From the IMG/VR virus record IMGVR_UViG_3300012936_000004, positions 25,415-89,414 of that record: DNA of 64,000 nucleotides; one strand, written 5' to 3'. The position numbers were made by a program, and so were the translations under genes. This document shows positions 3,933-47,813 of the stretch, piece after piece (positions within the stretch are counted from its first letter, which is position 1; every line of letters starts with the position of its first letter). The notes under the pieces are model-generated. The model searched no databases. It saw nothing but the letters and a program-made list of their open reading frames with translations, and had not been told where the DNA came from. The stretch comes from a virus.

Positions 3933-4367
3933 TTACTTTGCATATTCAATTTCGATTTTACGTGGTTTTTTCTCATCTGGAATAATGCGCTCTAATTCAA
4001 TATAAAGCATACCGTTTTCCATACGAGCACCATGTACAACTACGTCATCCGCAAGTGTAAATTTACGTTCAAATCTACGTTGTGCTACGCCTTTATGGAC
4101 ATATGTCCAATCTTCTGATTCTACGTCTTGTGGATTATAACTAATTGTTAATGCCCCATCTGCAACTTCAATATTTAAATCTTCCATACGTACTCCGGCA
4201 ACTGCCATTTCAATTTGGAAGTTTTCTTCCTGTTGGATAATATTGTAAGGGGGATATCCTGTATTATTTGAATGTTCTACATATCTGAACATATCATCAA
4301 ATATTCTGTCAAATCCAACGCTGTGTGGGGTAAGTTTATTCAAATCGAATGTTGTTAGTCTTGTCAT
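3933..4367 (-). CDS. small heat shock protein (Hsp20/IbpA-like)
   Basis: GFDR.FD, YPPYNI, IEMAVAG, HKGVAQRRFERKF.LAD, GMLYIELERIIP. Confidence 0.95.
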   Translation of the reverse strand: MTRLTTFDLNKLTPHSVGFDRIFDDMFRYVEHSNNTGYPPYNIIQQEENFQIEMAVAGVRMEDLNIEVADGALTISYNPQDVESEDWTYVHKGVAQRRFERKFTLADDVVVHGARMENGMLYIELERIIPDEKKPRKIEIEYAK

Positions 4368-4423
4368 TTTGTTTCTCCTTATAAAAGCAAGATTAATGTT
4401 GTGGACCCATAATTGGCATCCAC
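4365..4423 (-). promoter_or_regulatory. ROSE-like RNA thermometer in the hsp20 5' UTR
   Basis: mRNA UCUUGCU-UUUAUA-AGGAGA pairs the U(U/C)GCU motif with the SD; upstream GUGGA..UCCAC hairpin. Confidence 0.75.
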
Positions 4424-4596
4424 TTGTATTTATGTTTAGAGGGCTAACCGTGACCCTCTACGTGCTTATTAGGTAGCAACCCCTGTCTTATTAAATTTGG
4501 TCATATAGTTTGTTTTATGTATTTCTTATCGTGTCTTGGGGCATGTTTCAGCGCCATCTTCTTATGTAATTAATATAGTGTTGATACCACTAAATG

Positions 4597-4713
4597 TCAA
4601 GAGATTTTCTTTACTAAATTTTTAATTTTTGCTTTTGCAGATATCCAGCCCATAGCAAAACCTACTGCCATAACGCTTATAAGAGCAATTGAGTGCCATA
4701 TTAAAAAACTCAT
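4597..4713 (-). CDS. small membrane protein (38 aa)
   Basis: manual ORF MSFLIWHSIALISVMAVGFAMGWISAK...; GAGGAG SD. Confidence 0.6.
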   Translation of the reverse strand: MSFLIWHSIALISVMAVGFAMGWISAKAKIKNLVKKIS

Positions 4714-4714
4714 T

Positions 4715-4864
4715 TTATTCTCCTCTTTTAATATAATGATGCGGATACGCCTTAGGACGTTCACTTTTAATCATTTCCATGTGAGCTTCCGCTTCAGCTT
4801 CTGTATTGAAACGTGCCACTGCAACTTCGTCTTCCATACGTGGAATATAGATTACTTCAAACAT
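4715..4864 (-). CDS. small hypothetical protein (49 aa)
   Basis: manual ORF MFEVIYIPRMEDEVAVARF...; AGGAG SD. Confidence 0.6.
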   Translation of the reverse strand: MFEVIYIPRMEDEVAVARFNTEAEAEAHMEMIKSERPKAYPHHYIKRGE

Positions 4865-4875
4865 TATTTACTCCT

Positions 4876-5112
4876 TTAGTAACCGAATTTTTCTTTATTT
4901 TTTTCTACTTGTTTTAACCAACGCTTACGTGCCGCCGCCTTTTCTTTTTTCTTCTTTAGACTAGGCTTCTCAAAAAATTCTTTATCACGCATATCTTTAA
5001 AAAGGCCTTCATTGTTACACATTTTTTTTAGTTTACGCATAGCTCTTGCAACATCATTATTACGGACTTCTACATAAAGACCTTTACCTTCTTGTTCTCT
5101 TCTTCTAGCCAT
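4876..5112 (-). CDS. rpsU: 30S ribosomal protein bS21
   Basis: VEVRNNDVARAMRKLKK...REFFEKPS-like...AARKR pattern. Confidence 0.92.
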   Translation of the reverse strand: MARRREQEGKGLYVEVRNNDVARAMRKLKKMCNNEGLFKDMRDKEFFEKPSLKKKKEKAAARKRWLKQVEKNKEKFGY

Positions 5113-5650
5113 TCTTTCCTCTTCTTATTATTCCAATTAATCTATTTCCGTTTAGGGATGGTTTACTATCCCATTCTACTTCATTAAATGATTCATATAC
5201 ACGTGTCAGTATGTCAAAGCCCAATTGCTTATTAGCATTTTCTCTGCCACGAAAGCGTACCATAAGTTTAACTTTATTTCCTTTTGCAAGAAACTTGTCA
5301 ATATGATTTAACTTTGTTTCAAAATCATGATCACCAATTCCTGGACGGAATTGTACTTCTTTAACTTCAACTCGACTTTCACGTTGTCGTTTTGCCGCAT
5401 CTTTTTCTCGACGCTTTTGTTCGTAGAAGTATTTATTAGCATCTAAAATCTTTGCTACAGGAGGGTCAGACGATTCTGTAATTACTACTAAATCAAGTCC
5501 TTTGCTCTCTGCGATTCGAAGTGCTTCTATCTTACTAATAACACCTAGCTGAGCCGAGTCATCTATAACTCGCAAAGTGTTGTATCTTATATGTCCATTG
5601 ATTGCTGGTTTTGAATCTTGCTTTCTAAACTTTGACATCTTTACCCGCAC
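5105..5650 (-). CDS. infC: translation initiation factor IF-3 (start GTG 5650 or ATD-frame ATG 5638)
   Basis: INGHIR, LDLVVI...PPVAKILD, VKEVQFRPGIGDHDFETK, FRGRE. Confidence 0.93.
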   Translation of the reverse strand: MRVKMSKFRKQDSKPAINGHIRYNTLRVIDDSAQLGVISKIEALRIAESKGLDLVVITESSDPPVAKILDANKYFYEQKRREKDAAKRQRESRVEVKEVQFRPGIGDHDFETKLNHIDKFLAKGNKVKLMVRFRGRENANKQLGFDILTRVYESFNEVEWDSKPSLNGNRLIGIIRRGKNG

Positions 5651-15998: not shown

Positions 15999-16254
15999 CT
16001 AAATTTATATCTCCAATAAGTTCACGTACGGTATCTGGTTGCATTCTACTCAACGCCATACCGCCGCCTTCTACTAATAATTTGCCTTTATGATAGATTT
16101 GAGGCATAGTTCTATGTCCTTCTTTTATTAAAAACTCACGAGCTTCTTCGTTCTCTGCAATATTAATTGTTTCAAACTCGAAGCCGTGCTTTTTTAAATA
16201 CTGCTTTGCAACATCACAGTAAGGACAAAATGGTTTAGTATATACTGTAATCAC
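15976..16254 (-). CDS. nrdC: glutaredoxin
   Basis: CPYC and TMPQI motifs; adjacent to nrdB. Confidence 0.92.
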   Translation of the reverse strand: MITVYTKPFCPYCDVAKQYLKKHGFEFETINIAENEEAREFLIKEGHRTMPQIYHKGKLLVEGGGMALSRMQPDTVRELIGDINLDVGDFKL

Positions 16255-24668: not shown

Positions 24669-24965
24669 TTAGGTCATTAACAGTGTAACTATTACTGTTA
24701 ATACACCTGCTATGATAGTACCGCCAGTACCCATCATTATTTTATTTGTTGTATTACCTGCTTTGATCATATCCTCACGGAGTCGACCAAATTCTCTTAT
24801 GCCGTCTTCACGCATTTGGAAAACGGTTTTTTCAATGCCTGTAAGGCGAGTGTCTATGTTGTTAACTTTTTCTTCCAATACACGATACCTCTCGGCACAC
24901 AGATCAACGTGTGCTTCCAGATTCTCCCGCTCGAGTTGCGTGGTTTGAATCGCTGAAACTGACAT
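24669..24965 (-). CDS. coiled-coil protein with C-terminal TM helix (XhlA/holin-like)
   Basis: LEAHVDLCAERY coiled coil plus hydrophobic C-terminus. Confidence 0.7.
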   Translation of the reverse strand: MSVSAIQTTQLERENLEAHVDLCAERYRVLEEKVNNIDTRLTGIEKTVFQMREDGIREFGRLREDMIKAGNTTNKIMMGTGGTIIAGVLTVIVTLLMT

Positions 24966-25127
24966 TAAATACGCTTTCTACGGCTTAAATGCTTCTTAGC
25001 ATCGTGTTAGTAGTAGCCTTTTGATAACGGAGGCTAGTGACTGACTCCGCATATGCCTAATATAGTGTGCCTTTTTTCTTTGCCTAGTAGAGTTCGCTTA
25101 CTGCTTTCTACAATAGTATTTATAATA

Positions 25128-25547
25128 TCATACCAATTTAATAAAGTATAGGTTAATGTATTCATCCGACTTTGTATTAAAAATATTGTTTAAAAAATTA
25201 ACAGTTTCGTCTAAGTACGGAGTAAATGCTATTCTATTACAGTCTTGTTTTAAAAAATAAACATTATTATCATCTTGAGTAAAAACGTTGCTATGTTCGC
25301 TACTAAAGTCAAATTTCCATACTGTATGTAGTCCTGAATATGCAGTTCCGAAGGCGTAATCAACTACATCTTGTGCTTCAAAACGCTCAACTCTAATGTC
25401 CAATGGTTGACTTCTCATGCCAATACACTGAACTAATGTGTTTAAATTTTGTTGTTGATTGTATCCGTGTATATTTTTACTTCTATAGTTTATTATGTTA
25501 CTATTTGTAATGTCCACTAACGTATACGCTGTGTATTTTTCTGACAA
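25128..25547 (-). CDS. hypothetical protein
   Basis: YTLVDIT...QQQN.NTL.Q.IG.RSQP. Confidence 0.7.
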   Translation of the reverse strand: MSEKYTAYTLVDITNSNIINYRSKNIHGYNQQQNLNTLVQCIGMRSQPLDIRVERFEAQDVVDYAFGTAYSGLHTVWKFDFSSEHSNVFTQDDNNVYFLKQDCNRIAFTPYLDETVNFLNNIFNTKSDEYINLYFIKLV

Positions 25548-26366: not shown

Positions 26367-27440
26367 TTACAAATTAGGTTGCCATCTACTACGTGGTACT
26401 AGTTTAATTTTATCTCTACCAGCAACATAACCTTCTCCACCTTCTTCACCTTTTGTACTTGCTTTAATATCAGCAGGTGCTGAATCTAATTGTGCAATAA
26501 TAGAATCTTTAACTGTCATAATTTTTACAACCAATTGTAATATTGCATTTAAACCTTTTGTATCTGATGCTAATAATTTGGCTTGCTGTCCTGCACTTAC
26601 TTTACTAGTCTTAAGCCAATCAAAAAACCCACTACCTAGTTTGTCTAGTTTACGTTGTTTGGTCATTTGATTAACATATGTATAAACAATGCCGCCTTTA
26701 TTGCTTAATCCTTTTTCAGGTGTTAACCAAGCATCAATTATTGATCCATTTGTATTAGCTAATTGTACTATTTCTTCAACTGCGCTTGTATCAATACTTG
26801 GAGTATGAGAAACATATGTTTGTCCAAACACTACTACTTCGTTTGTGTTCAATCTTTTTGTATCTTTAAGAGGTGTACCTGTACGATCTCCAAACTCTCC
26901 AAATATACTGTGTGCGGCAATACCGATTCGACTACCACCAATACGTTTACCAATAGCACTATCAGCATCTACAGTGTATGTTACGTTATTTGGCTCAAAC
27001 ATGTAAGCACCATTATTAGTTGTAAAAGGTTTAGATGGACTGTACAATAAGTCTCCGTAAACAAATCCACGCATATCTAAAGCAGTATTTTGTTCCATCA
27101 AATCAAATACTGCACCCATATTATCAGCGAAGTCTTGTCTCCAATCTTCGCCTTTGCCTGTCCCCATAATGAATTGTTTAAGTTCGTCACTACTAGTACT
27201 TTTACTTTTACCCCAACCATTTTTACCAGTTAGTACAAATGTACCATTACTATCACGCCCCCAATAAATTGTAGGATTGCCGTCCCATTTAATGGCAACA
27301 TCACTTGAGTCTTGTCCTAGTCTTTGTAAAATAGTTGCCGCACGTTTAGCACCTTTACTACCTTCAGCAAATACTAAATCTTCTAAATGCTGATATTCAC
27401 GACCGACTGTGGCTTCTGTGAGTAATTCTCTTGCTCGCAT
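26367..27440 (-). CDS. RNA-ligase-fold (covalent nucleotidyltransferase) protein, DUF6267-like, putatively virion-packaged
   Basis: motif I KWDG, III GDLLY, IV GEGYV, V KIKLV; leader MRARELLTE. Confidence 0.7.
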   Translation of the reverse strand: MRARELLTEATVGREYQHLEDLVFAEGSKGAKRAATILQRLGQDSSDVAIKWDGNPTIYWGRDSNGTFVLTGKNGWGKSKSTSSDELKQFIMGTGKGEDWRQDFADNMGAVFDLMEQNTALDMRGFVYGDLLYSPSKPFTTNNGAYMFEPNNVTYTVDADSAIGKRIGGSRIGIAAHSIFGEFGDRTGTPLKDTKRLNTNEVVVFGQTYVSHTPSIDTSAVEEIVQLANTNGSIIDAWLTPEKGLSNKGGIVYTYVNQMTKQRKLDKLGSGFFDWLKTSKVSAGQQAKLLASDTKGLNAILQLVVKIMTVKDSIIAQLDSAPADIKASTKGEEGGEGYVAGRDKIKLVPRSRWQPNL

Positions 27441-28231
27441 TAATCAAGTTCTTTCCAATTTGGATCATTTGCTCTAATGTTTGCTAATAGCTCTTCGCCT
27501 TCTTTACCCAATATTGATACAATAGATTCAACACTGCCCATATCTTCTTTGCGGGCATTAGGGCCTAATAATAATTTAGCAATCTCATTAATGTCACGGC
27601 TAATAAGTCCGTTAGGATCTTTTTTACCATTTGGTAAACGCTTATAAAGTCCATCAAAGTTACTCCATAGCATACCTTTTTCTCGAGCAATAATACTCAA
27701 TAGTTGTTGCTTGTTTTTTCCTTTAAACTTACTTCCTTGCGGAATATTGTGTGTATGAAACTGTGCCGCATTTGCCGCATTTGGCACAACCATAATATCA
27801 ACTTGATGTGCATGGTCGCCCATTGGTACTTTAACGTGTACACTATTACCACTCTGAGCTGTATCAAATCCTGCTAAGTCATATAACTGACGTAGTTTTT
27901 GTCTAATAACTTTATCAGGTTCGTCTGGCATTTTAAAATGTTGTTTAAGTATATCAGTATCGACTATTAAATCTAAGTCACCACTAACTTTACCTTTAGT
28001 TGGAGTTGCACCTGATCCTATTGGAATTGCACTAGCACCTGTTTTAGAAAGTACAGTGTTTACACTTTTCATAATGCTTGGAATCATTGCATGATCAAAC
28101 GGTATCGCATCATCACCAAAGACCTTACCACCTTCGCTTAGATGTAAGTCGTTCTGTAAAATTCTTTTAATGCGGCTACCTCGTCTAATTTTACGTTTAA
28201 ACTTACCGCCTAGTATATCTTTAATTTTCAA
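27440..28231 (-). CDS. Pol-beta superfamily nucleotidyltransferase, putatively virion-packaged
   Basis: IGSG...SGDLDLIV...HQVDIM; leader ending LSE-GG. Confidence 0.75.
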   Translation of the reverse strand: MKIKDILGGKFKRKIRRGSRIKRILQNDLHLSEGGKVFGDDAIPFDHAMIPSIMKSVNTVLSKTGASAIPIGSGATPTKGKVSGDLDLIVDTDILKQHFKMPDEPDKVIRQKLRQLYDLAGFDTAQSGNSVHVKVPMGDHAHQVDIMVVPNAANAAQFHTHNIPQGSKFKGKNKQQLLSIIAREKGMLWSNFDGLYKRLPNGKKDPNGLISRDINEIAKLLLGPNARKEDMGSVESIVSILGKEGEELLANIRANDPNWKELD

Positions 28232-28463
28232 CTCGTTTGATCCCTCTTATAAACTTCTTAGGATCTTTAGTTCGGATTGAATTAATTAAGCGTTTATTTA
28301 AATCAGCGGCGGTTTCAACATCGAAACTTTCGTTGATTAAATTAATTAAGTTAATAGCAGTGACAATAACTTGCTCGGCATTAGACTCAACAATCTGCTT
28401 TTTGTCTCTCTTAGGAGCCATTGCATTAATTTCTTCCAAAATTGATCTTGTTTTTCTTTTCAT
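28221..28463 (-). CDS. hypothetical protein
   Basis: start MKRKTRSILEE after TATAAATA. Confidence 0.7.
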   Translation of the reverse strand: MKRKTRSILEEINAMAPKRDKKQIVESNAEQVIVTAINLINLINESFDVETAADLNKRLINSIRTKDPKKFIRGIKRVEN

Positions 28464-28471
28464 AACACTAC

Positions 28472-28483
28472 TATTTATAAATA
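28472..28483. promoter_or_regulatory. overlapping divergent T4-type late promoters (TATAAATA on both strands)
   Basis: palindrome tatttataaata. Confidence 0.7.
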
Positions 28484-28486
28484 TTG

Positions 28487-28712
28487 TTGCTGAAACATTG
28501 GTGGAAAGCACTTATGGCACTTTTGCATTTTCTGATTAAGAACTTAGGATCCATTGGAAAAATAAGAACTATAACATCAGTGGTAGCGGGCAAACAACAG
28601 GCTTACTTTTTGGCTCATACAGGCTCATACTTATTGACTCTTTAAGGCTAGCCCGTTGTTCGATATCATACATAGACTAGAATAAGGTCAACGGCATCAA
28701 TGTTTCAGCAAC
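28487..28712 (+). ncRNA. candidate ~226-nt structured ncRNA closed by an 18-bp terminal stem
   Basis: gttgctgaaacattggtg pairs with catcaatgtttcagcaac (one G-U on the + strand); inner agcgggc/gcccgtt stem; + strand TATAAATA immediately upstream. Confidence 0.65.
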
Positions 28713-30103
28713 TATTCCCTTCGTTTTAATAAGTTTTTTAATCTATCAGCATTATCAACTGCAACTGCGGCTGTTGGTGCAGTTTGTACACCTGCTGGGC
28801 TCACACTACTTTGAGCATTTGCTTTTAGGCTTTGATAGATACTTGCAACTTGTCCATCTTCACCCTGCTCATCTTCATCTAAATCTGTAATACGTAACGT
28901 TGACATATCATAACCTAAGTCTAGTTTAGTGCCAACTCCGCTACTACTACGTGTTTTCATAAATTGTATTTGTACTCTACCACGTTCACGCATTGCACGG
29001 CTACTAAAAATACCTATTAGGTTATCTGCTGTATTAATTTTACTAATACCGCCTGCAATGTGAGAATGATCAAACTCTACTTCATCAACAGCCGCACGAT
29101 TTAACTGCGATGCTGTAACAAACAATATGTTTAATTCTGTTGCTAAGTTACGTAACTCTTCAGATACAAATTTATCTTTAATAAATTGATCACTTGGATT
29201 AACTTTAACACTTACAGGCATCATTAAATCTAAGTAGTCAACAAATAGTGCATCTACTTTTAAGTTCTTTTGTATTTGAAATTCTTTTAAGTATGCTTTG
29301 ACATCATTGATTGTACTACCATTACTCATTTGTATAATTTGTAATACACCTGCTTTTTTACTTGCCATCTTAACTTTGAGCTCAACATCATCTGCATTTT
29401 TCATAACATCACGTGTACTCATATTAGTAAGCATAGCATCAAGTCGCATACTACAAAGTTCTTCACTAAGTTCTAAACTTACATAGACAACATTCTTACC
29501 TGCTAGTGCCCAGTTAAGTGCCATATTTTGCATAAACAAACTTTTACCACTACCACTACCACCTGCAAAAATGTTTAGTTCGCCTGGATTAAATCCGCCA
29601 TACAATACTTTATCTAAACTATCCCAACCTGTACTATTTTGTCCTCTATTATCTTTTATAGTTTGTATACGTCCTGCAGGATCTTCCCAATAGTTTAGTC
29701 CAAAGTCTTTAGCAAGTCCAATGCTCACTGCGTCTTTAATAATAGATTCAACACTTCCATACTCATGCCGTTCTAGTTTGTCTGCACTTTGTAATATTGC
29801 ACCTTCTAATGCTTTATGTCTACAAAACTTTTCGTATTCATCCATAAACCATTTCTTATGATCATCTGTAATTTTATCTTTTACGTCATCAAATTGTTGT
29901 TGTGTCTTTGCACCAATTTGTTCGTGTGTAGGTAAATCACCATATCCATCTACATGCTCTTGTATAAAGTCCATTACAGGCTGATACTTACGAGCAAAAT
30001 ATTTGCTTTGTGTAATAGCATTACATCTAACAAAAAGATCTTTTTCTGCTAGTAAAAATTCAATGTACAGTTTCTGTAAATCTTCTGTATACTCTTCACT
30101 CAT
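28712..30103 (-). CDS. gp41: replicative DNA helicase (T4 gp41/DnaB-like)
   Basis: AGGSGSGKS, SLELSE, VDYLDL, TASQLNR, MKTR. Confidence 0.93.
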   Translation of the reverse strand: MSEEYTEDLQKLYIEFLLAEKDLFVRCNAITQSKYFARKYQPVMDFIQEHVDGYGDLPTHEQIGAKTQQQFDDVKDKITDDHKKWFMDEYEKFCRHKALEGAILQSADKLERHEYGSVESIIKDAVSIGLAKDFGLNYWEDPAGRIQTIKDNRGQNSTGWDSLDKVLYGGFNPGELNIFAGGSGSGKSLFMQNMALNWALAGKNVVYVSLELSEELCSMRLDAMLTNMSTRDVMKNADDVELKVKMASKKAGVLQIIQMSNGSTINDVKAYLKEFQIQKNLKVDALFVDYLDLMMPVSVKVNPSDQFIKDKFVSEELRNLATELNILFVTASQLNRAAVDEVEFDHSHIAGGISKINTADNLIGIFSSRAMRERGRVQIQFMKTRSSSGVGTKLDLGYDMSTLRITDLDEDEQGEDGQVASIYQSLKANAQSSVSPAGVQTAPTAAVAVDNADRLKNLLKRRE

Positions 30104-30401
30104 CTAATTCGCCTGTTAACTTTTTTTGAATGTACTCACTACGAGTGTATATCATTCGCCAATCTCTTCCCTTTTTAGGAACTGCACCATTCATATCCAT
30201 TGTTATAACGTATTCATAGTAATATGTCAACCAAATCCATTGATTAGTTATATCACTACGTTTAGGCCACCAAGCAAACTGTTTAATCCATTCGCTTTGC
30301 AAATCTGTGTGTGCGCTTATATGTTTCATACCTGCATTATATACATCATCTACAGTAAGACTTTGCCAAGACTTGTATTTTTGTTTTGTTTTTGAATGCA
30401 C
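30096..30401 (-). CDS. hypothetical protein (start may be ATG 30329)
   Basis: FAWWP...IWL..Y motif common in small phage ORFs. Confidence 0.6.
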   Translation of the reverse strand: MHSKTKQKYKSWQSLTVDDVYNAGMKHISAHTDLQSEWIKQFAWWPKRSDITNQWIWLTYYYEYVITMDMNGAVPKKGRDWRMIYTRSEYIQKKLTGELDE

Positions 30402-31362
30402 TTTCTAATATACTCCTAACTGTAAATAATCTTCCGTATTTTTGTACTGCGTCAGCGGCATCTTTACAGTTTTCCCAAGGAGGAAAACTTACTTGCCAGT
30501 CTCGCCTTAAAGCCGCACGAACTAAATCGTTACCTGCTTTATCTGCATCTGGAACTACAATAACTTCTGTATCTAAACTATCTACTATATCACATTGTGT
30601 CATACTGGGTGTATTACCTTGCATAGCAACACCACCAACTAGTAATGCATCAAACTGTCCTTCAGTAACAATTGTATACTTATGTGACTTTTGCTTGTCT
30701 ATGTTATAAACAAAATGCTTTGGACTTTGCAAATAGTATTTAGGTATTTCTTTGTTTGGAGTTTTGCCAACCCAACGTGCAGTATATCCTACAACATTAT
30801 TGTTATGATAAAACGGAAGTATTACTCTATTACTAAAATGTTTAAATGGTGACCAATGCCAGTGTTTATAAAAACTTACACCACGCTCCTCAACATATTC
30901 ACATGCGGCAACAAACTTAGCAAGTTCTGTTTCTGTTAGTTTACTAGTATCCACATTGTGTAGAGGAACTGCATCTGGAGGCAATACAGAATCTGGCCAA
31001 TCTATTTTTACTTCACGCTGTTCTGCTTTTTGTATAAACTGATCTGCAATACTTGCTTCTTCTTGTTCTTTAAGTAGTTCAAAGTTAATACGCTGTATCT
31101 GTGCAGGATCTGCTCCCAACTGTTCTAATAGTTCTTTTAAACGTCCTGCTATTCTACGACCTTGTGACCATCCAGTTTTAAATCCACAGTTAAAACAATT
31201 GTACTGAAACTTTTCATCGTCAAACATAAAACCGCCACGTTTACGTTTGTCTGGACCATGCCCACGAGTATGACACATCGGACAGTTTCCACTAATCCAA
31301 CCACTAGGTGTTTGTTTCCACCCACCAGGCATATTTTGTCTTACAAAGTCGAGTACAATCAT
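30346..31362 (-). CDS. gp61: DNA primase (T4 gp61-like)
   Basis: CPMC...CFNC zinc finger; TOPRIM TEGQFDA, PDADKAG, KDAAD. Confidence 0.92.
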   Translation of the reverse strand: MIVLDFVRQNMPGGWKQTPSGWISGNCPMCHTRGHGPDKRKRGGFMFDDEKFQYNCFNCGFKTGWSQGRRIAGRLKELLEQLGADPAQIQRINFELLKEQEEASIADQFIQKAEQREVKIDWPDSVLPPDAVPLHNVDTSKLTETELAKFVAACEYVEERGVSFYKHWHWSPFKHFSNRVILPFYHNNNVVGYTARWVGKTPNKEIPKYYLQSPKHFVYNIDKQKSHKYTIVTEGQFDALLVGGVAMQGNTPSMTQCDIVDSLDTEVIVVPDADKAGNDLVRAALRRDWQVSFPPWENCKDAADAVQKYGRLFTVRSILESAFKNKTKIQVLAKSYCR

Positions 31363-40515: not shown

Positions 40516-40605
40516 TGGCGGACAGTCAGGGATTCGAACCCTGGGAAGGCGTTAACCTTCGTCGGTTTAGTAGACCGGTGCTTTAAACCTCTCAGCCAAC
40601 TGTCC
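40516..40605 (-). tRNA. tRNA-Ser with unusual anticodon ACU
   Basis: GGACAGU acceptor, loop CU-ACU-AA, long variable arm, G73, encoded CCA. Confidence 0.9.
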
Positions 40606-40611
40606 AACAAC

Positions 40612-40698
40612 TTAAAAATGTACACTCACTTGTAACCTTTCGGGCTCTCGTCCCATACACTGGAAAGTAGGTGTATCTACTCTGGTGTACATTTTTAA
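40612..40698 (-). ncRNA. unknown structured RNA inside the tRNA cluster
   Basis: 14-bp terminal stem ttaaaaatgtacac/gtgtacatttttaa; internal auacac/guguau and cc-GAAA-gg hairpins. Confidence 0.55.
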
Positions 40699-40747
40699 AT
40701 TGTTAAGTTTAAATTAACATCTATTCTTTTGTTGTCAACCTTTTTTT

Positions 40748-40824
40748 TGGAGTGGGTGACTGGACTCGAACCAGCATAACACGGATTTGCAATCCGGTCC
40801 GTAACCAATTCCGGACACACCCAC
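40748..40824 (-). tRNA. tRNA-Cys(GCA)
   Basis: cloverleaf, loop UU-GCA-AA, U73, CCA. Confidence 0.92.
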
Positions 40825-40829
40825 TTAAT

Positions 40830-40916
40830 TGGTACCTCCTGCCAGACTCGAACTGGCACGCTATATTCAGCGACAGATTTTAAGTCTGTTGTGTCTACCT
40901 ATTCCACCAAGGAGGC
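40830..40916 (-). tRNA. tRNA-Leu(UAA)
   Basis: loop CU-UAA-AA, long variable arm, A73, CCA. Confidence 0.95.
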
Positions 40917-40917
40917 T

Positions 40918-41002
40918 TGGCACAGGTGGCGAGATTCGAACTCGCTCAGCTTACGCACTGGTTTTGGAGACCAGCATACCTCTCCAACTGTATCGCACCT
41001 GC
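40918..41002 (-). tRNA. tRNA-Trp(CCA) with enlarged variable arm
   Basis: loop CU-CCA-AA; 12-nt variable region UGCGUAAGCUGA; G73, CCA. Confidence 0.85.
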
Positions 41003-41009
41003 ATTATTA

Positions 41010-41084
41010 TGGTAGCCCGTAGGGGAATCGAACCCCTCTTTCAAGGTTGAAAACCTTGCGTCCTAACCGATAGACGAACGGGCC
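41010..41084 (-). tRNA. tRNA-Glu(UUC)
   Basis: loop UU-UUC-AA, standard cloverleaf, CCA. Confidence 0.93.
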
Positions 41085-43312: not shown

Positions 43313-43414
43313 TGGCTCTGGGGGGAGGATTCGAACCTCCACGGTAAATATATTGCAGTATATTAAACCACACGATAAACAGTCGTGCGTGTCTACCATT
43401 TCCACCACCCCAGA
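43313..43414 (-). tRNA. atypical tRNA-Asn(GUU), 102 nt, with 30-nt variable arm and Leu-type D arm
   Basis: UCUGGGG/CCCCAGA acceptor, G73, CCA; anticodon arm CACGA-CUGUUUA-UCGUG; T arm GGAGG-UUCGAAU-CCUCC. Confidence 0.85.
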
Positions 43415-46679: not shown

Positions 46680-47717
46680 TTAATTACCACGAGCACGTAT
46701 TGCGGCTAAAATATCTTGTGCGCTTGGCTTTTCGCCATCTGCCGCTGGTGCTGTTGCCGCTACTGTTTCAGCAACTTGCTCTTGTTGAGCTGGTGGTGTT
46801 ACAGGTGCAGGCTCTGGTGCCGCTTCTGCTACAGGAGCAGGAGTTGGCGTAGCCGCAGGCTGTGGTGCAGGACTAGCCGATGGTGTACTATTACTATTTG
46901 GTACACTATTGCTAGTATCAATTTGTACGCCGGACGGACGATAAAAATTTCCCCATGCTACCGGATCATATAATTTTCCATCAACACTTGCTTCAAACAT
47001 TTGACCAATTACAGCTAATTCTGCTTCACTTGGTTGTTTAGGAAGATAGTCATTTAATGTATACAAACCATATGACTCAATTGCTGAACGCTCATCGCTG
47101 TTTAGCGAACGTTCTTTACGAGACCAACTAGAAGTTGAATAGTCTGAATATTGACCTTTTGTAGTTTTAGTAAGACGGAAGTCTGTACCTGCTTCGTAAT
47201 CCGTTGGAAGTTCTTCAAAATCACTATCCATAAGTGCGCCTTTAATAATATTAAAGATACTTGGATTAATAATGAATCTACGAATTGGATTCTCAGGTTT
47301 TTCTTCATCGAGGGATGATTCCGTTACAAAACCTTGGAATACGTAACTACGCTTTTTCCAGTACTTACGTCCCATGTCCTCAAGTGCAGGATCTTTAAAC
47401 CATTGCCGCACCTCAGACAGTACAGGGCAACTTCCTACTGGACCCCACATTTCGTTACAAGGTACATTAACTGTTACTCGACGAGAATCAGGTTGTCCTT
47501 CGACTCCTGCAAATTCTAATCGAATCATTTGACGCTCACGCCAAAAGAAAGTATTACTCGTATCTCCATCTGGAAGGAAACGAATTACACTAGTTGAATT
47601 TTCTGGGATATTCCAAAACGGATAGATTGCGTTATCGCCTCCTCCGCTTGATTGATTACCGCTACCACGATTATCTTGCTCTTGTAGTTTTGCACGAATT
47701 TCTGCCAATGATGCCAT
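46680..47717 (-). CDS. gp32: single-stranded DNA-binding protein (T4 gp32-like)
   Basis: IRFLPD, C...CPV, YWKKRSY, G.DF.L.KT.KG.Y.DY..S; Ala/Pro tail. Confidence 0.9.
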   Translation of the reverse strand: MASLAEIRAKLQEQDNRGSGNQSSGGGDNAIYPFWNIPENSTSVIRFLPDGDTSNTFFWRERQMIRLEFAGVEGQPDSRRVTVNVPCNEMWGPVGSCPVLSEVRQWFKDPALEDMGRKYWKKRSYVFQGFVTESSLDEEKPENPIRRFIINPSIFNIIKGALMDSDFEELPTDYEAGTDFRLTKTTKGQYSDYSTSSWSRKERSLNSDERSAIESYGLYTLNDYLPKQPSEAELAVIGQMFEASVDGKLYDPVAWGNFYRPSGVQIDTSNSVPNSNSTPSASPAPQPAATPTPAPVAEAAPEPAPVTPPAQQEQVAETVAATAPAADGEKPSAQDILAAIRARGN

Positions 47718-47813
47718 AGTTTTTCTCCTTATATATGCCTATGTTTTTGCCTAAGTTTTGCCTTTGTGACAATGTACTTATTGTCTTGATAATAATACGT
47801 TTTTTGCCAGTTG

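Follow-up and report, generated by a model that had tools for sequence, protein, structure and literature searches.

The DNA analysed here, called the window in what follows, is a stretch of 64,000 nucleotides (nt) from an uncultured marine jumbo phage (IMG/VR record IMGVR_UViG_3300012936_000004, positions 25,415 to 89,414), part of an 89-kb contig estimated at 25% of the genome; 86 of its 90 called genes lie on the - strand. Between a replicative helicase gene and the next gene there is a gap of 251 nt, and comparison with relatives shows that a conserved RNA gene occupies this gap. Its product is compact and has several helices, P1, P2, P3 and P4, with a possible helix P4b and two possible pseudoknots. 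The RNA is antisense to the neighbouring genes, with replication genes on one side, and divergent from the virion genes on the other. The locus is laid out as follows.

28224..28463, - strand: gene for a virion structural protein of 80 amino acids (aa), the first of the virion module (phrog_11854, E 2.5e-17)
28472..28479, - strand: late-promoter motif that stands back to back with the next one and faces the 80-aa virion gene, whose ATG at 28463 follows TAAATA after 8 nt
28476..28483, + strand: T4-type late-promoter motif TATAAATA, with the family-invariant core TAAATA at 28478-28483
28489..28709, + strand: predicted RNA of ~221 nt, which presumably begins with an invariant G and reaches as far as the final conserved P1 pair
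28715..30103, - strand: gene for a DnaB/gp41-like replicative helicase (PF03796, E 5.8e-24)

The helicase stop codon (28712-14) abuts the 3' arm of the RNA. An earlier note on this DNA had described the gap as bounded by an 18-nt inverted repeat, and both arms are present with one mismatch: the left arm GTTGCTGAAACATTGGTG occupies 28486-28503, starting one position before the 28487 given in that note, and its complement lies at 28695-28712, the right-hand end having been placed correctly. The chance expectation for such a match is 0.06, and 0 of 100 window shuffles gives as many arm matches. The sole imperfect pair is indeed a G-U on the + strand only (G28501-U28697; A-C on the - strand). The late-promoter motif that the note had seen upstream of the arm, against the local gene direction, also exists (TATAAATA at 28476-28483, 2 nt before 28486); it forms half of a palindrome, TATTTATAAATA, whose second TATAAATA at 28472-28479 on the - strand had escaped that first reading.

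The evidence for a conserved fold comes from pair counts on 68 distinct sequences aligned to a covariance model, a fitting procedure that leans towards structure; a MAFFT alignment folded with RNAalifold gave the same helices independently. The 29 modelled pairs fall in five helices; 99.1% of their cells are standard pairs, 16 of the 29 vary on both sides, and none of 500 shuffles reaches the observed percentage of paired cells, the count of double-change cells or the covariation score. When partners were slid by 1-3 columns as a control, pairing fell to 33-54%. The helices contain 137 G-U or U-G cells versus 2 A-C or C-A cells, and 99.1% of cells are paired for a + strand RNA versus 92.3% if the RNA were read from the - strand; the covariance model likewise matches 28474-28716 with 228.8 bits on the + strand versus 20.6 bits on the - strand. 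Judged by these comparisons the strand is settled, the RNA being read from the + strand, since the G-U cells so far outnumber the A-C cells, and the same asymmetry rules out a purely DNA-level hairpin. Folding energy alone cannot tell the strand, because in single-sequence folding both strands beat their shuffles (z -2.54 and -3.29).

The 18-bp inverted repeat beside replication genes might have pointed to a DNA-level element, such as a cruciform, a replication origin or a miniature mobile element, and the window's only notable + strand open reading frame (28484-28645, 53 aa) to a small protein gene. These explanations are largely refuted and keep hardly any probability. The G-U asymmetry would be meaningless for DNA, and a mobile element agrees poorly with one copy per contig, always in the same slot and orientation. 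As for a peptide, the ATG, which lies in the segment ACUUAUGGCA, is AUA in several members, and indels of 1-2 nt break the reading frame after about 15 codons; since neither start codon nor frame is conserved, the gene should be one for an RNA and not for a protein.

The elements of the predicted fold, all on the + strand, are the following.

28489..28503: 5' strand of P1, pairing with 28695-28709; 15 continuous pairs in the window
28510..28519: invariant ACUUAUGGCA, containing the CUUAU of P2 and an unpaired UAUGGCA site
28511-15 with 28682-86: P2, CUUAU with AUAAG, as modelled
28534..28536 with 28665-67: candidate pseudoknot 2, GAU with AUC, tentative
28551..28583: P3 hairpin, CCAUU(G) at 28551-56 with (C)AGUGG at 28578-83
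28566..28569 with 28658-61: candidate pseudoknot 1, in which GAAC from the P3 loop would pair with GUUC, tentative
28586..28656: P4 domain, GCGGGC at 28586-91 with GCCCGU at 28651-56
28622..28640: P4b hairpin, GGCUCA at 28622-27 with UGACUC at 28635-40, tentative
28695..28709: 3' strand of P1, pairing with 28489-28503

In the window P1 can be extended by three more pairs, to 28486/28712, and these outer pairs are not conserved; across the family it consists of 9-10 pairs, a small internal loop and 3-4 pairs, with changes on both sides in 10 of 13 pairs and 97.5-99.1% of cells paired. Conservation and covariation of this terminal stem had been named beforehand as one test of the proposal, and the relatives display both. 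P2 is invariant (68/68), and covariation neither supports nor refutes it; an AUAAG in the P3 loop, part of the invariant AAUAAGA at 28561-67, may be an alternative partner for its CUUAU. P3 has changes on both sides in 2 of 5 pairs with 98.8% of cells paired. The inner stem that had been noted before is present as P4, where 4 of 6 pairs change on both sides and the closing pair is G-U in 51 of the 68 sequences; it encloses a near-invariant unpaired ACAGGCU (28597-28603) and a variable insert. P4b is almost invariant; one aligned sequence (L040) keeps the hairpin through multiple compensatory changes, and so, by eye, does another (L243) that MAFFT left unaligned there. Both candidate pseudoknots were picked post hoc from a scan of all column pairs, and each has 98.5% of cells paired: the first changes on one side only (G-U/A-U 37/31), and in the second one pair goes from G-C to U-A in 6 of 68. 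A further hairpin, P2a (CCUGA/UUAGG), is broken in several clades and was rejected.

6S RNA is a rod-like helix with a large central bubble. The predicted RNA shares with it a length of about 200 nt and paired ends, but its fold is branched, with four or five helices, and no Rfam 6S match was obtained; the 6S-like shape once offered as an alternative is not supported. The 226-nt RNA proposed from the window letters survives as a predicted folded RNA, with its length shortened to ~221 nt (28489..28709).

TAAATA is invariant in 46 of 46 sequences, and its distance from the invariant G28489 is 5 nt in 59 of the 68 aligned sequences and 6 nt in 8 (the 68th row has no TAAATA in its aligned upstream part); this G is exactly where the conserved pairing of P1 begins. 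In relatives the two back-to-back motifs are separate, the gene strand having CTAAATA and the RNA strand GTAAATA. Of the 68 TAAATA sites of the window, 36 fall in intergenic DNA, which makes up 11% of it (~7 kb). Nine genes have TAAATA followed after 5 nt by the ATG, and the motif is also found ahead of the genes for head closure and the head-tail adaptor and of two virion structural genes. Late promoters of T4 have the sequence TATAAATA and depend on gp55 and gp33, according to the portion of the 2010 T4 review used here (PMC3014915), and the related jumbo phage CBB has ATAAATA before structural genes as well as a gp55-like sigma factor, according to the part of its description used here (PMC5259590). 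Because TAAATA is invariant, its spacing is fixed, the motif stands before virion genes and T4 and CBB offer parallels, we infer that the RNA is transcribed late from its own T4-type late promoter, with a start at G28489, so that the first base made would be the first base of P1. Four metatranscriptome contig sets from the same sample or studies yielded nothing that covers 26500-30500, which counts neither for nor against a transcript. Family covariation, the G-U asymmetry and the invariant TAAATA together bear out the idea of a non-coding + strand RNA whose ends pair in a terminal helix and which follows a T4-type late-promoter motif.

Among the nine genes with TAAATA, 5 nt and ATG are starts at 2369, 9322, 12113, 15680, 24646, 26353, 43298 and 60933, which have no ribosome-binding site; provided that the T4 spacing applies to them, their late mRNAs would have little or no leader. 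Further + strand intergenic TAAATA sites, against the gene direction, occur at 16195, 24966, 37138, 39498 and 43345 and may start other antisense or non-coding RNAs; the covariance model found no copy of the present RNA at these five sites.

At the other end of the gene, no terminator follows P1 in the window. In some relatives the helicase gene is separated from the RNA by a radical-SAM/SPASM gene (381-390 aa) pressed against the 3' arm, and where this gene, or a 140-aa gene in its place, adjoins the arm, the sequence past the arm is unrelated; the conserved unit thus appears to end at P1. Since nothing beyond P1 is conserved, trimming of the 3' end back to P1 is to be expected, which would protect both ends and yield a stable RNA of ~221 nt. 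The radical-SAM/SPASM gene lies at 4395-5567 in locus L002 and at 4386-5531 in L025, with its last codons overlapping the 3' arm, and the 140-aa gene of the other clade (L057, 2662-3084) has weak GNAT-like matches below the Pfam thresholds.

The unit stands just where the replication module gives way to the virion module, and it is directed towards the replication genes; the lack of a terminator after P1 would suit an RNA that acts in cis. Late + strand transcription could run into the 3' end of the early primase-helicase operon and silence or trim it, by interference or through double-stranded RNA, the folded part being the stable 5' portion of a longer transcript; the 3' end of the helicase mRNA would be fully complementary to the RNA, and the complementary strand folds well in the window (-62.1 kcal/mol). 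Such an antisense or insulator role is nevertheless improbable. The 137 G-U versus 2 A-C cells speak for selection on the RNA's own fold and not on complementarity only, in many relatives it is the radical-SAM or 140-aa gene and not the helicase that adjoins the 3' arm, and no specific target is kept, since the sequence beyond P1 is unconserved.

The RNA is widespread within one lineage of uncultured viruses. A helicase search of viral contigs gave 80 loci, 77 of which also hold the downstream virion gene, and 76 of these 77 carry the RNA between the two genes, L046 being without it; two further loci end inside the element. The covariance model recovered 45 of 45 distinct representatives from the helicase-relative loci. 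A search with an RNA-specific pattern added 28 distinct viral sequences and found the RNA in 58 of 58 metagenome loci, whereas seven plus two loci from the pattern search were chance matches without the RNA. Viral and metagenome contigs together provide 91 distinct RNA sequences, whose aligned stretches measure 202-245 nt with a few flanking bases included; the metagenome and IMG/VR sequences partly share sources and are not independent samples. One RNA-bearing contig from the pattern search is binned in a Gammaproteobacteria metagenome-assembled genome (n=1): a 37.7-kb contig of the Mediterranean genome MED685 (L383, NZGL01000024.1, RNA at 5066-5302), either a weak hint of the host or a binning error.

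In the window contig and in each of five larger contigs (56-133 kb) the RNA is single-copy, and it always occupies the same slot in the same orientation with one exception. In that locus (L017) the RNA seemed to have the opposite orientation, but the contig is an assembly chimera in which two strains are fused, in fold-back manner, through the P1 arms; it was dropped from the claims on orientation. At 4014-4934 the contig folds back on itself at the terminal arms of the RNA, and its tail repeats its own helicase end in reverse with 86% identity; the 18-bp inverted repeat can evidently mislead assemblers.

Cultured phages place the gap in context. The helicase of the window shares 52% amino-acid identity with the helicase of PA5oct, a Pseudomonas jumbo phage, and 37-50% with the helicases of Atu_ph07, XaC1 and RaK2-type phages. 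PA5oct, Atu_ph07 and XaC1 have homologues of the 80-aa protein that bear the annotation virion structural protein, and in all three the gene order runs primase, helicase, the ~80-aa virion structural protein and further virion proteins; because the 80-aa gene belongs to this virion family, the gap marks the border between the replication and virion modules. The spacing between helicase and virion gene is only 3-40 nt in PA5oct and XaC1, and Atu_ph07 has a 103-aa hypothetical gene there. The covariance model did not find the RNA at the PA5oct, Atu_ph07 and XaC1 loci, DNA searches of a phage collection gave no match, and in the cultured cyanophage S-RIM2 mazG follows the helicase gene directly, with no gap. 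A sister clade whose virion protein is ~58% identical to that of the window is also without the RNA: of 24 further loci, 1 has the RNA, 20 are assessable and without it, and 3 are cut off. Fifteen of the 20 hold a small protein gene in the slot, on the same antisense strand; 4 have a gap of 210 nt and 1 a gap of 27 nt. This distribution makes the RNA an accessory element confined to one lineage, and its slot takes up other accessory genes as well. One such gene, translated from L296 (3875-4210, - strand), encodes 111 aa and has its own ribosome site; the protein matched no Pfam or PHROG family.

This distribution bears on the idea of an assembly or virion RNA, one that would help to build or load the capsid as the packaging RNA of phi29 does, or would itself be packaged. 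The promoter region shared with the first virion gene, the presumed late timing and a terminal helix that joins both ends would all fit, but cultured relatives with the same virion genes and the sister clade do without the RNA, which therefore should not belong to a core assembly step, and no Rfam match to the phi29 packaging-RNA family was found. We regard this role as quite improbable.

The RNA family appears to be new and to lie outside the catalogued RNA families, as had been anticipated from the window. An Rfam 15 scan of 27500-29700 (E up to 10) returned chance-level matches only, with just a 13.6-bit fragment on the element itself, and the scan of 10 divergent members (E up to 5) matched no family; a tRNA/tmRNA scan gave nothing in the gap, and a literature search gave no description of such an RNA. 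The nearest company is that of GOLLD, ROOL and IMES, orphan structured RNAs of phages and marine metagenomes that were found by comparative genomics. It shares with them a conserved, covarying fold, an origin in uncultured, mostly marine viral sequence and the status of a stand-alone gene, but the Rfam search, which included these families, gave no match, the RNA is much smaller than GOLLD and ROOL, and it is tied to a single slot between helicase and first virion gene and to a late-promoter motif. Phage-encoded examples of the Y RNA YrlA exist, and the long terminal stem formed by both ends with a complex second domain is reminiscent of them; here too an Rfam match is wanting, and a TROVE/Ro60 gene was seen in 0 of 5 contig fragments, each only 19-37% complete. 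T4 itself makes RNA C and RNA D, small stable RNAs from the tRNA region to which the part of the 2010 review used here assigns no role (PMC3014915); the RNA described here differs in lying elsewhere, in having its own late-type promoter and in being absent from cultured relatives.

The motif (A/U)GGC(A/U) occurs 2-6 times per RNA (mode 4) versus 0.56 times in shuffles. The enrichment is real, and the sites are not equivalent.

UAUGGCA site: unpaired and conserved, 61/68
ACAGGCU site: unpaired and conserved, 67/68
Third common GGC site: in the 5' strand of P4b
Fourth common GGC site: at the end of P3, in its 3' strand
Other GGC sites of the window: specific to one clade

The element had at first been read as an array of six GGC(A/U) sites. 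The enrichment of the motif stands, and the array holds up only in part: one of the six sites lies in the P4 stem, two are the two strands of P4b and two are specific to one clade. Only UAUGGCA and ACAGGCU are both unpaired and conserved family-wide. The tandem repeat is where it had been reported (GGCTCATAC at 28612-20 and 28622-30), and the window RNA has seven GGC(A/U) in all, including the tandem GGCUCAUAC. A short-form clade has an RNA of 185 nt in which the P4 insert is missing and AUAGGCAA is gained in P3, with 2-3 GGC sites in all; this gain hints that the number of sites matters.

CsrB/RsmZ sponges carry many copies of a binding motif in the loops of repeated hairpins, and the earlier note had compared the element with them. 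Common to both is the working idea that RNA copies of a short mRNA-leader motif could draw a regulator away; the motif is enriched in the RNA, and its GGC core, though in a different sequence setting, recurs in an mRNA leader described below. The differences are that the phage motif is (A/U)GGC(A/U) and not GGA, and that the 2-6 copies, two of them conserved and unpaired, sit in a mostly unique, compact fold. A strict sponge of this type, acting through the six-site array, could be argued from the seven GGC(A/U) of the window, the tandem GGCUCAUAC and the family-wide enrichment; it has only a slight chance of being right, given the two conserved unpaired sites in the family as a whole, the 2-3 sites in total of the short form, the lack of repeated hairpin modules, a tandem repeat found in part of the family only and no match to a curated Rfam sponge family.

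It may instead be that the fold itself is the function, as in a new class of ribozyme or ligand-sensing RNA or the RNA subunit of a particle, in which case the GGC motifs would be structural and incidental. Pseudoknots that tie invariant junction segments are typical of ribozymes and aptamers; here long invariant unpaired segments lie at a multi-helix junction, the two candidate pseudoknots would link the 3' strand with the P3 loop and with J2/3, and of the four GGC sites that are usually present two do no more than form helix strands. These features do not go with any resemblance to an Rfam ribozyme or riboswitch, a riboswitch would have no downstream + strand gene to act on, and the pseudoknots show mostly one-sided changes and were chosen post hoc. 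We consider this explanation unlikely, while taking it seriously.

The same GGC core recurs in the leader of the gene for the single-stranded DNA-binding protein (SSB).

46683-47717, - strand: SSB gene (phrog_1192)

In its leader a hairpin is followed by three copies of AGGCA (47736-47763, - strand) before the ribosome site; the repeats are 11-12 nt apart and stand behind a sigma-70-like promoter. Of 70 relatives, 59 have at least three (A/U)GGC(A/U) within the 90 nt ahead of the start, whereas a same-sized coding control has none in 60 of 70. This AGGCA triple is probably a translational operator. In T4 the SSB, gp32, is a repressor of the mRNA that encodes it and acts through a structured element, a pseudoknot, with repeats after it, as set out in the part of the 2010 review used here (PMC3014915). 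The SSB leader resembles that operator in having a hairpin and then three repeats before the ribosome site, and the RNA shares the core of these repeats; as far as that part of the review goes (PMC3014915), the phage differs in that its repeats are AGGCA and not UUAA(A), that binding by SSB is an analogy, and that the RNA is a separate gene and not a leader. A second triple AGGCA lies at 25054-25085 (- strand), ~30 nt downstream of a TATAAATA at 25117-25124; it is followed by a CGGAG/CUCCG hairpin, in a leader of ~150 nt before a 98-aa gene (24672-24965).

Putting these observations together, we favour a trans-acting late RNA that binds a protein and competes for a leader-binding factor, and we put the probability of this tentative interpretation at about 0.4. 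A rigid scaffold would display four segments that are invariant and unpaired, namely ACUUAUGGCA, AAUAAGA, ACAGGCU and GAUAAGGUCAAC; two of them carry the (A/U)GGC(A/U) core and would mimic the SSB-leader repeats. The RNA would then compete with the SSB leader and with the second AGGCA-bearing late leader for one binding protein, which could be SSB itself by analogy with the autoregulation of T4 gp32, and the outcome would be translation retuned late in infection. A role as a protein decoy is in this sense possible.

Several observations weigh against competition for such a factor. Of the four GGC sites that usually occur, two are part of helices (the 3' strand of P3, and P4b), and most invariant nucleotides are unrelated to the GGC motif. 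The RNA sites read UGGCA or AGGCU and the leader motif AGGCA, and the GGC core of the leaders has A-rich flanks (87% A before, 84% A after). The SSB operator may work without the RNA, because the SSB relatives retrieved outnumber the RNA-bearing contigs, the 70 leaders examined reaching down to 55% SSB identity. The missing terminator after P1 also counts here, and the promoter, the late timing, both RNA ends and the partner protein are all predictions.

A more speculative form, which we hold to be doubtful, would make the RNA a new functional class, a compact pseudoknotted late RNA of T4-type jumbo phages that serves as a catalyst or as the core of a particle, reprogramming translation or SSB control, and that is possibly loaded into the virion for the next infection. 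The probability that is left belongs to explanations outside those weighed here.

As of the 2010 review (PMC3014915), in the part of it used here, no trans-acting small RNA from T4 had been functionally characterised, and a T4-type marine jumbo phage lineage that keeps an elaborate RNA gene under an apparent late promoter is of interest on that account. If the RNA competes for the AGGCA-leader factor, it would be the first RNA-level regulator of the classic SSB autoregulatory circuit; if it does not, it would be an orphan RNA with a new fold. Most of that fold is already defined by at least 91 natural variants, which makes synthesis, probing and binding work feasible even though the phages are uncultured.

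Among the other neighbouring genes the matches were to DUF6267 and phrog_455 only, with no meaningful relative of solved structure. Elsewhere in the window, at 40516-41084 and 43313-43414, ARAGORN calls six tRNA genes, including a tRNA-Ser with the anticodon ACT and a 102-nt tRNA called Asp(ATC).

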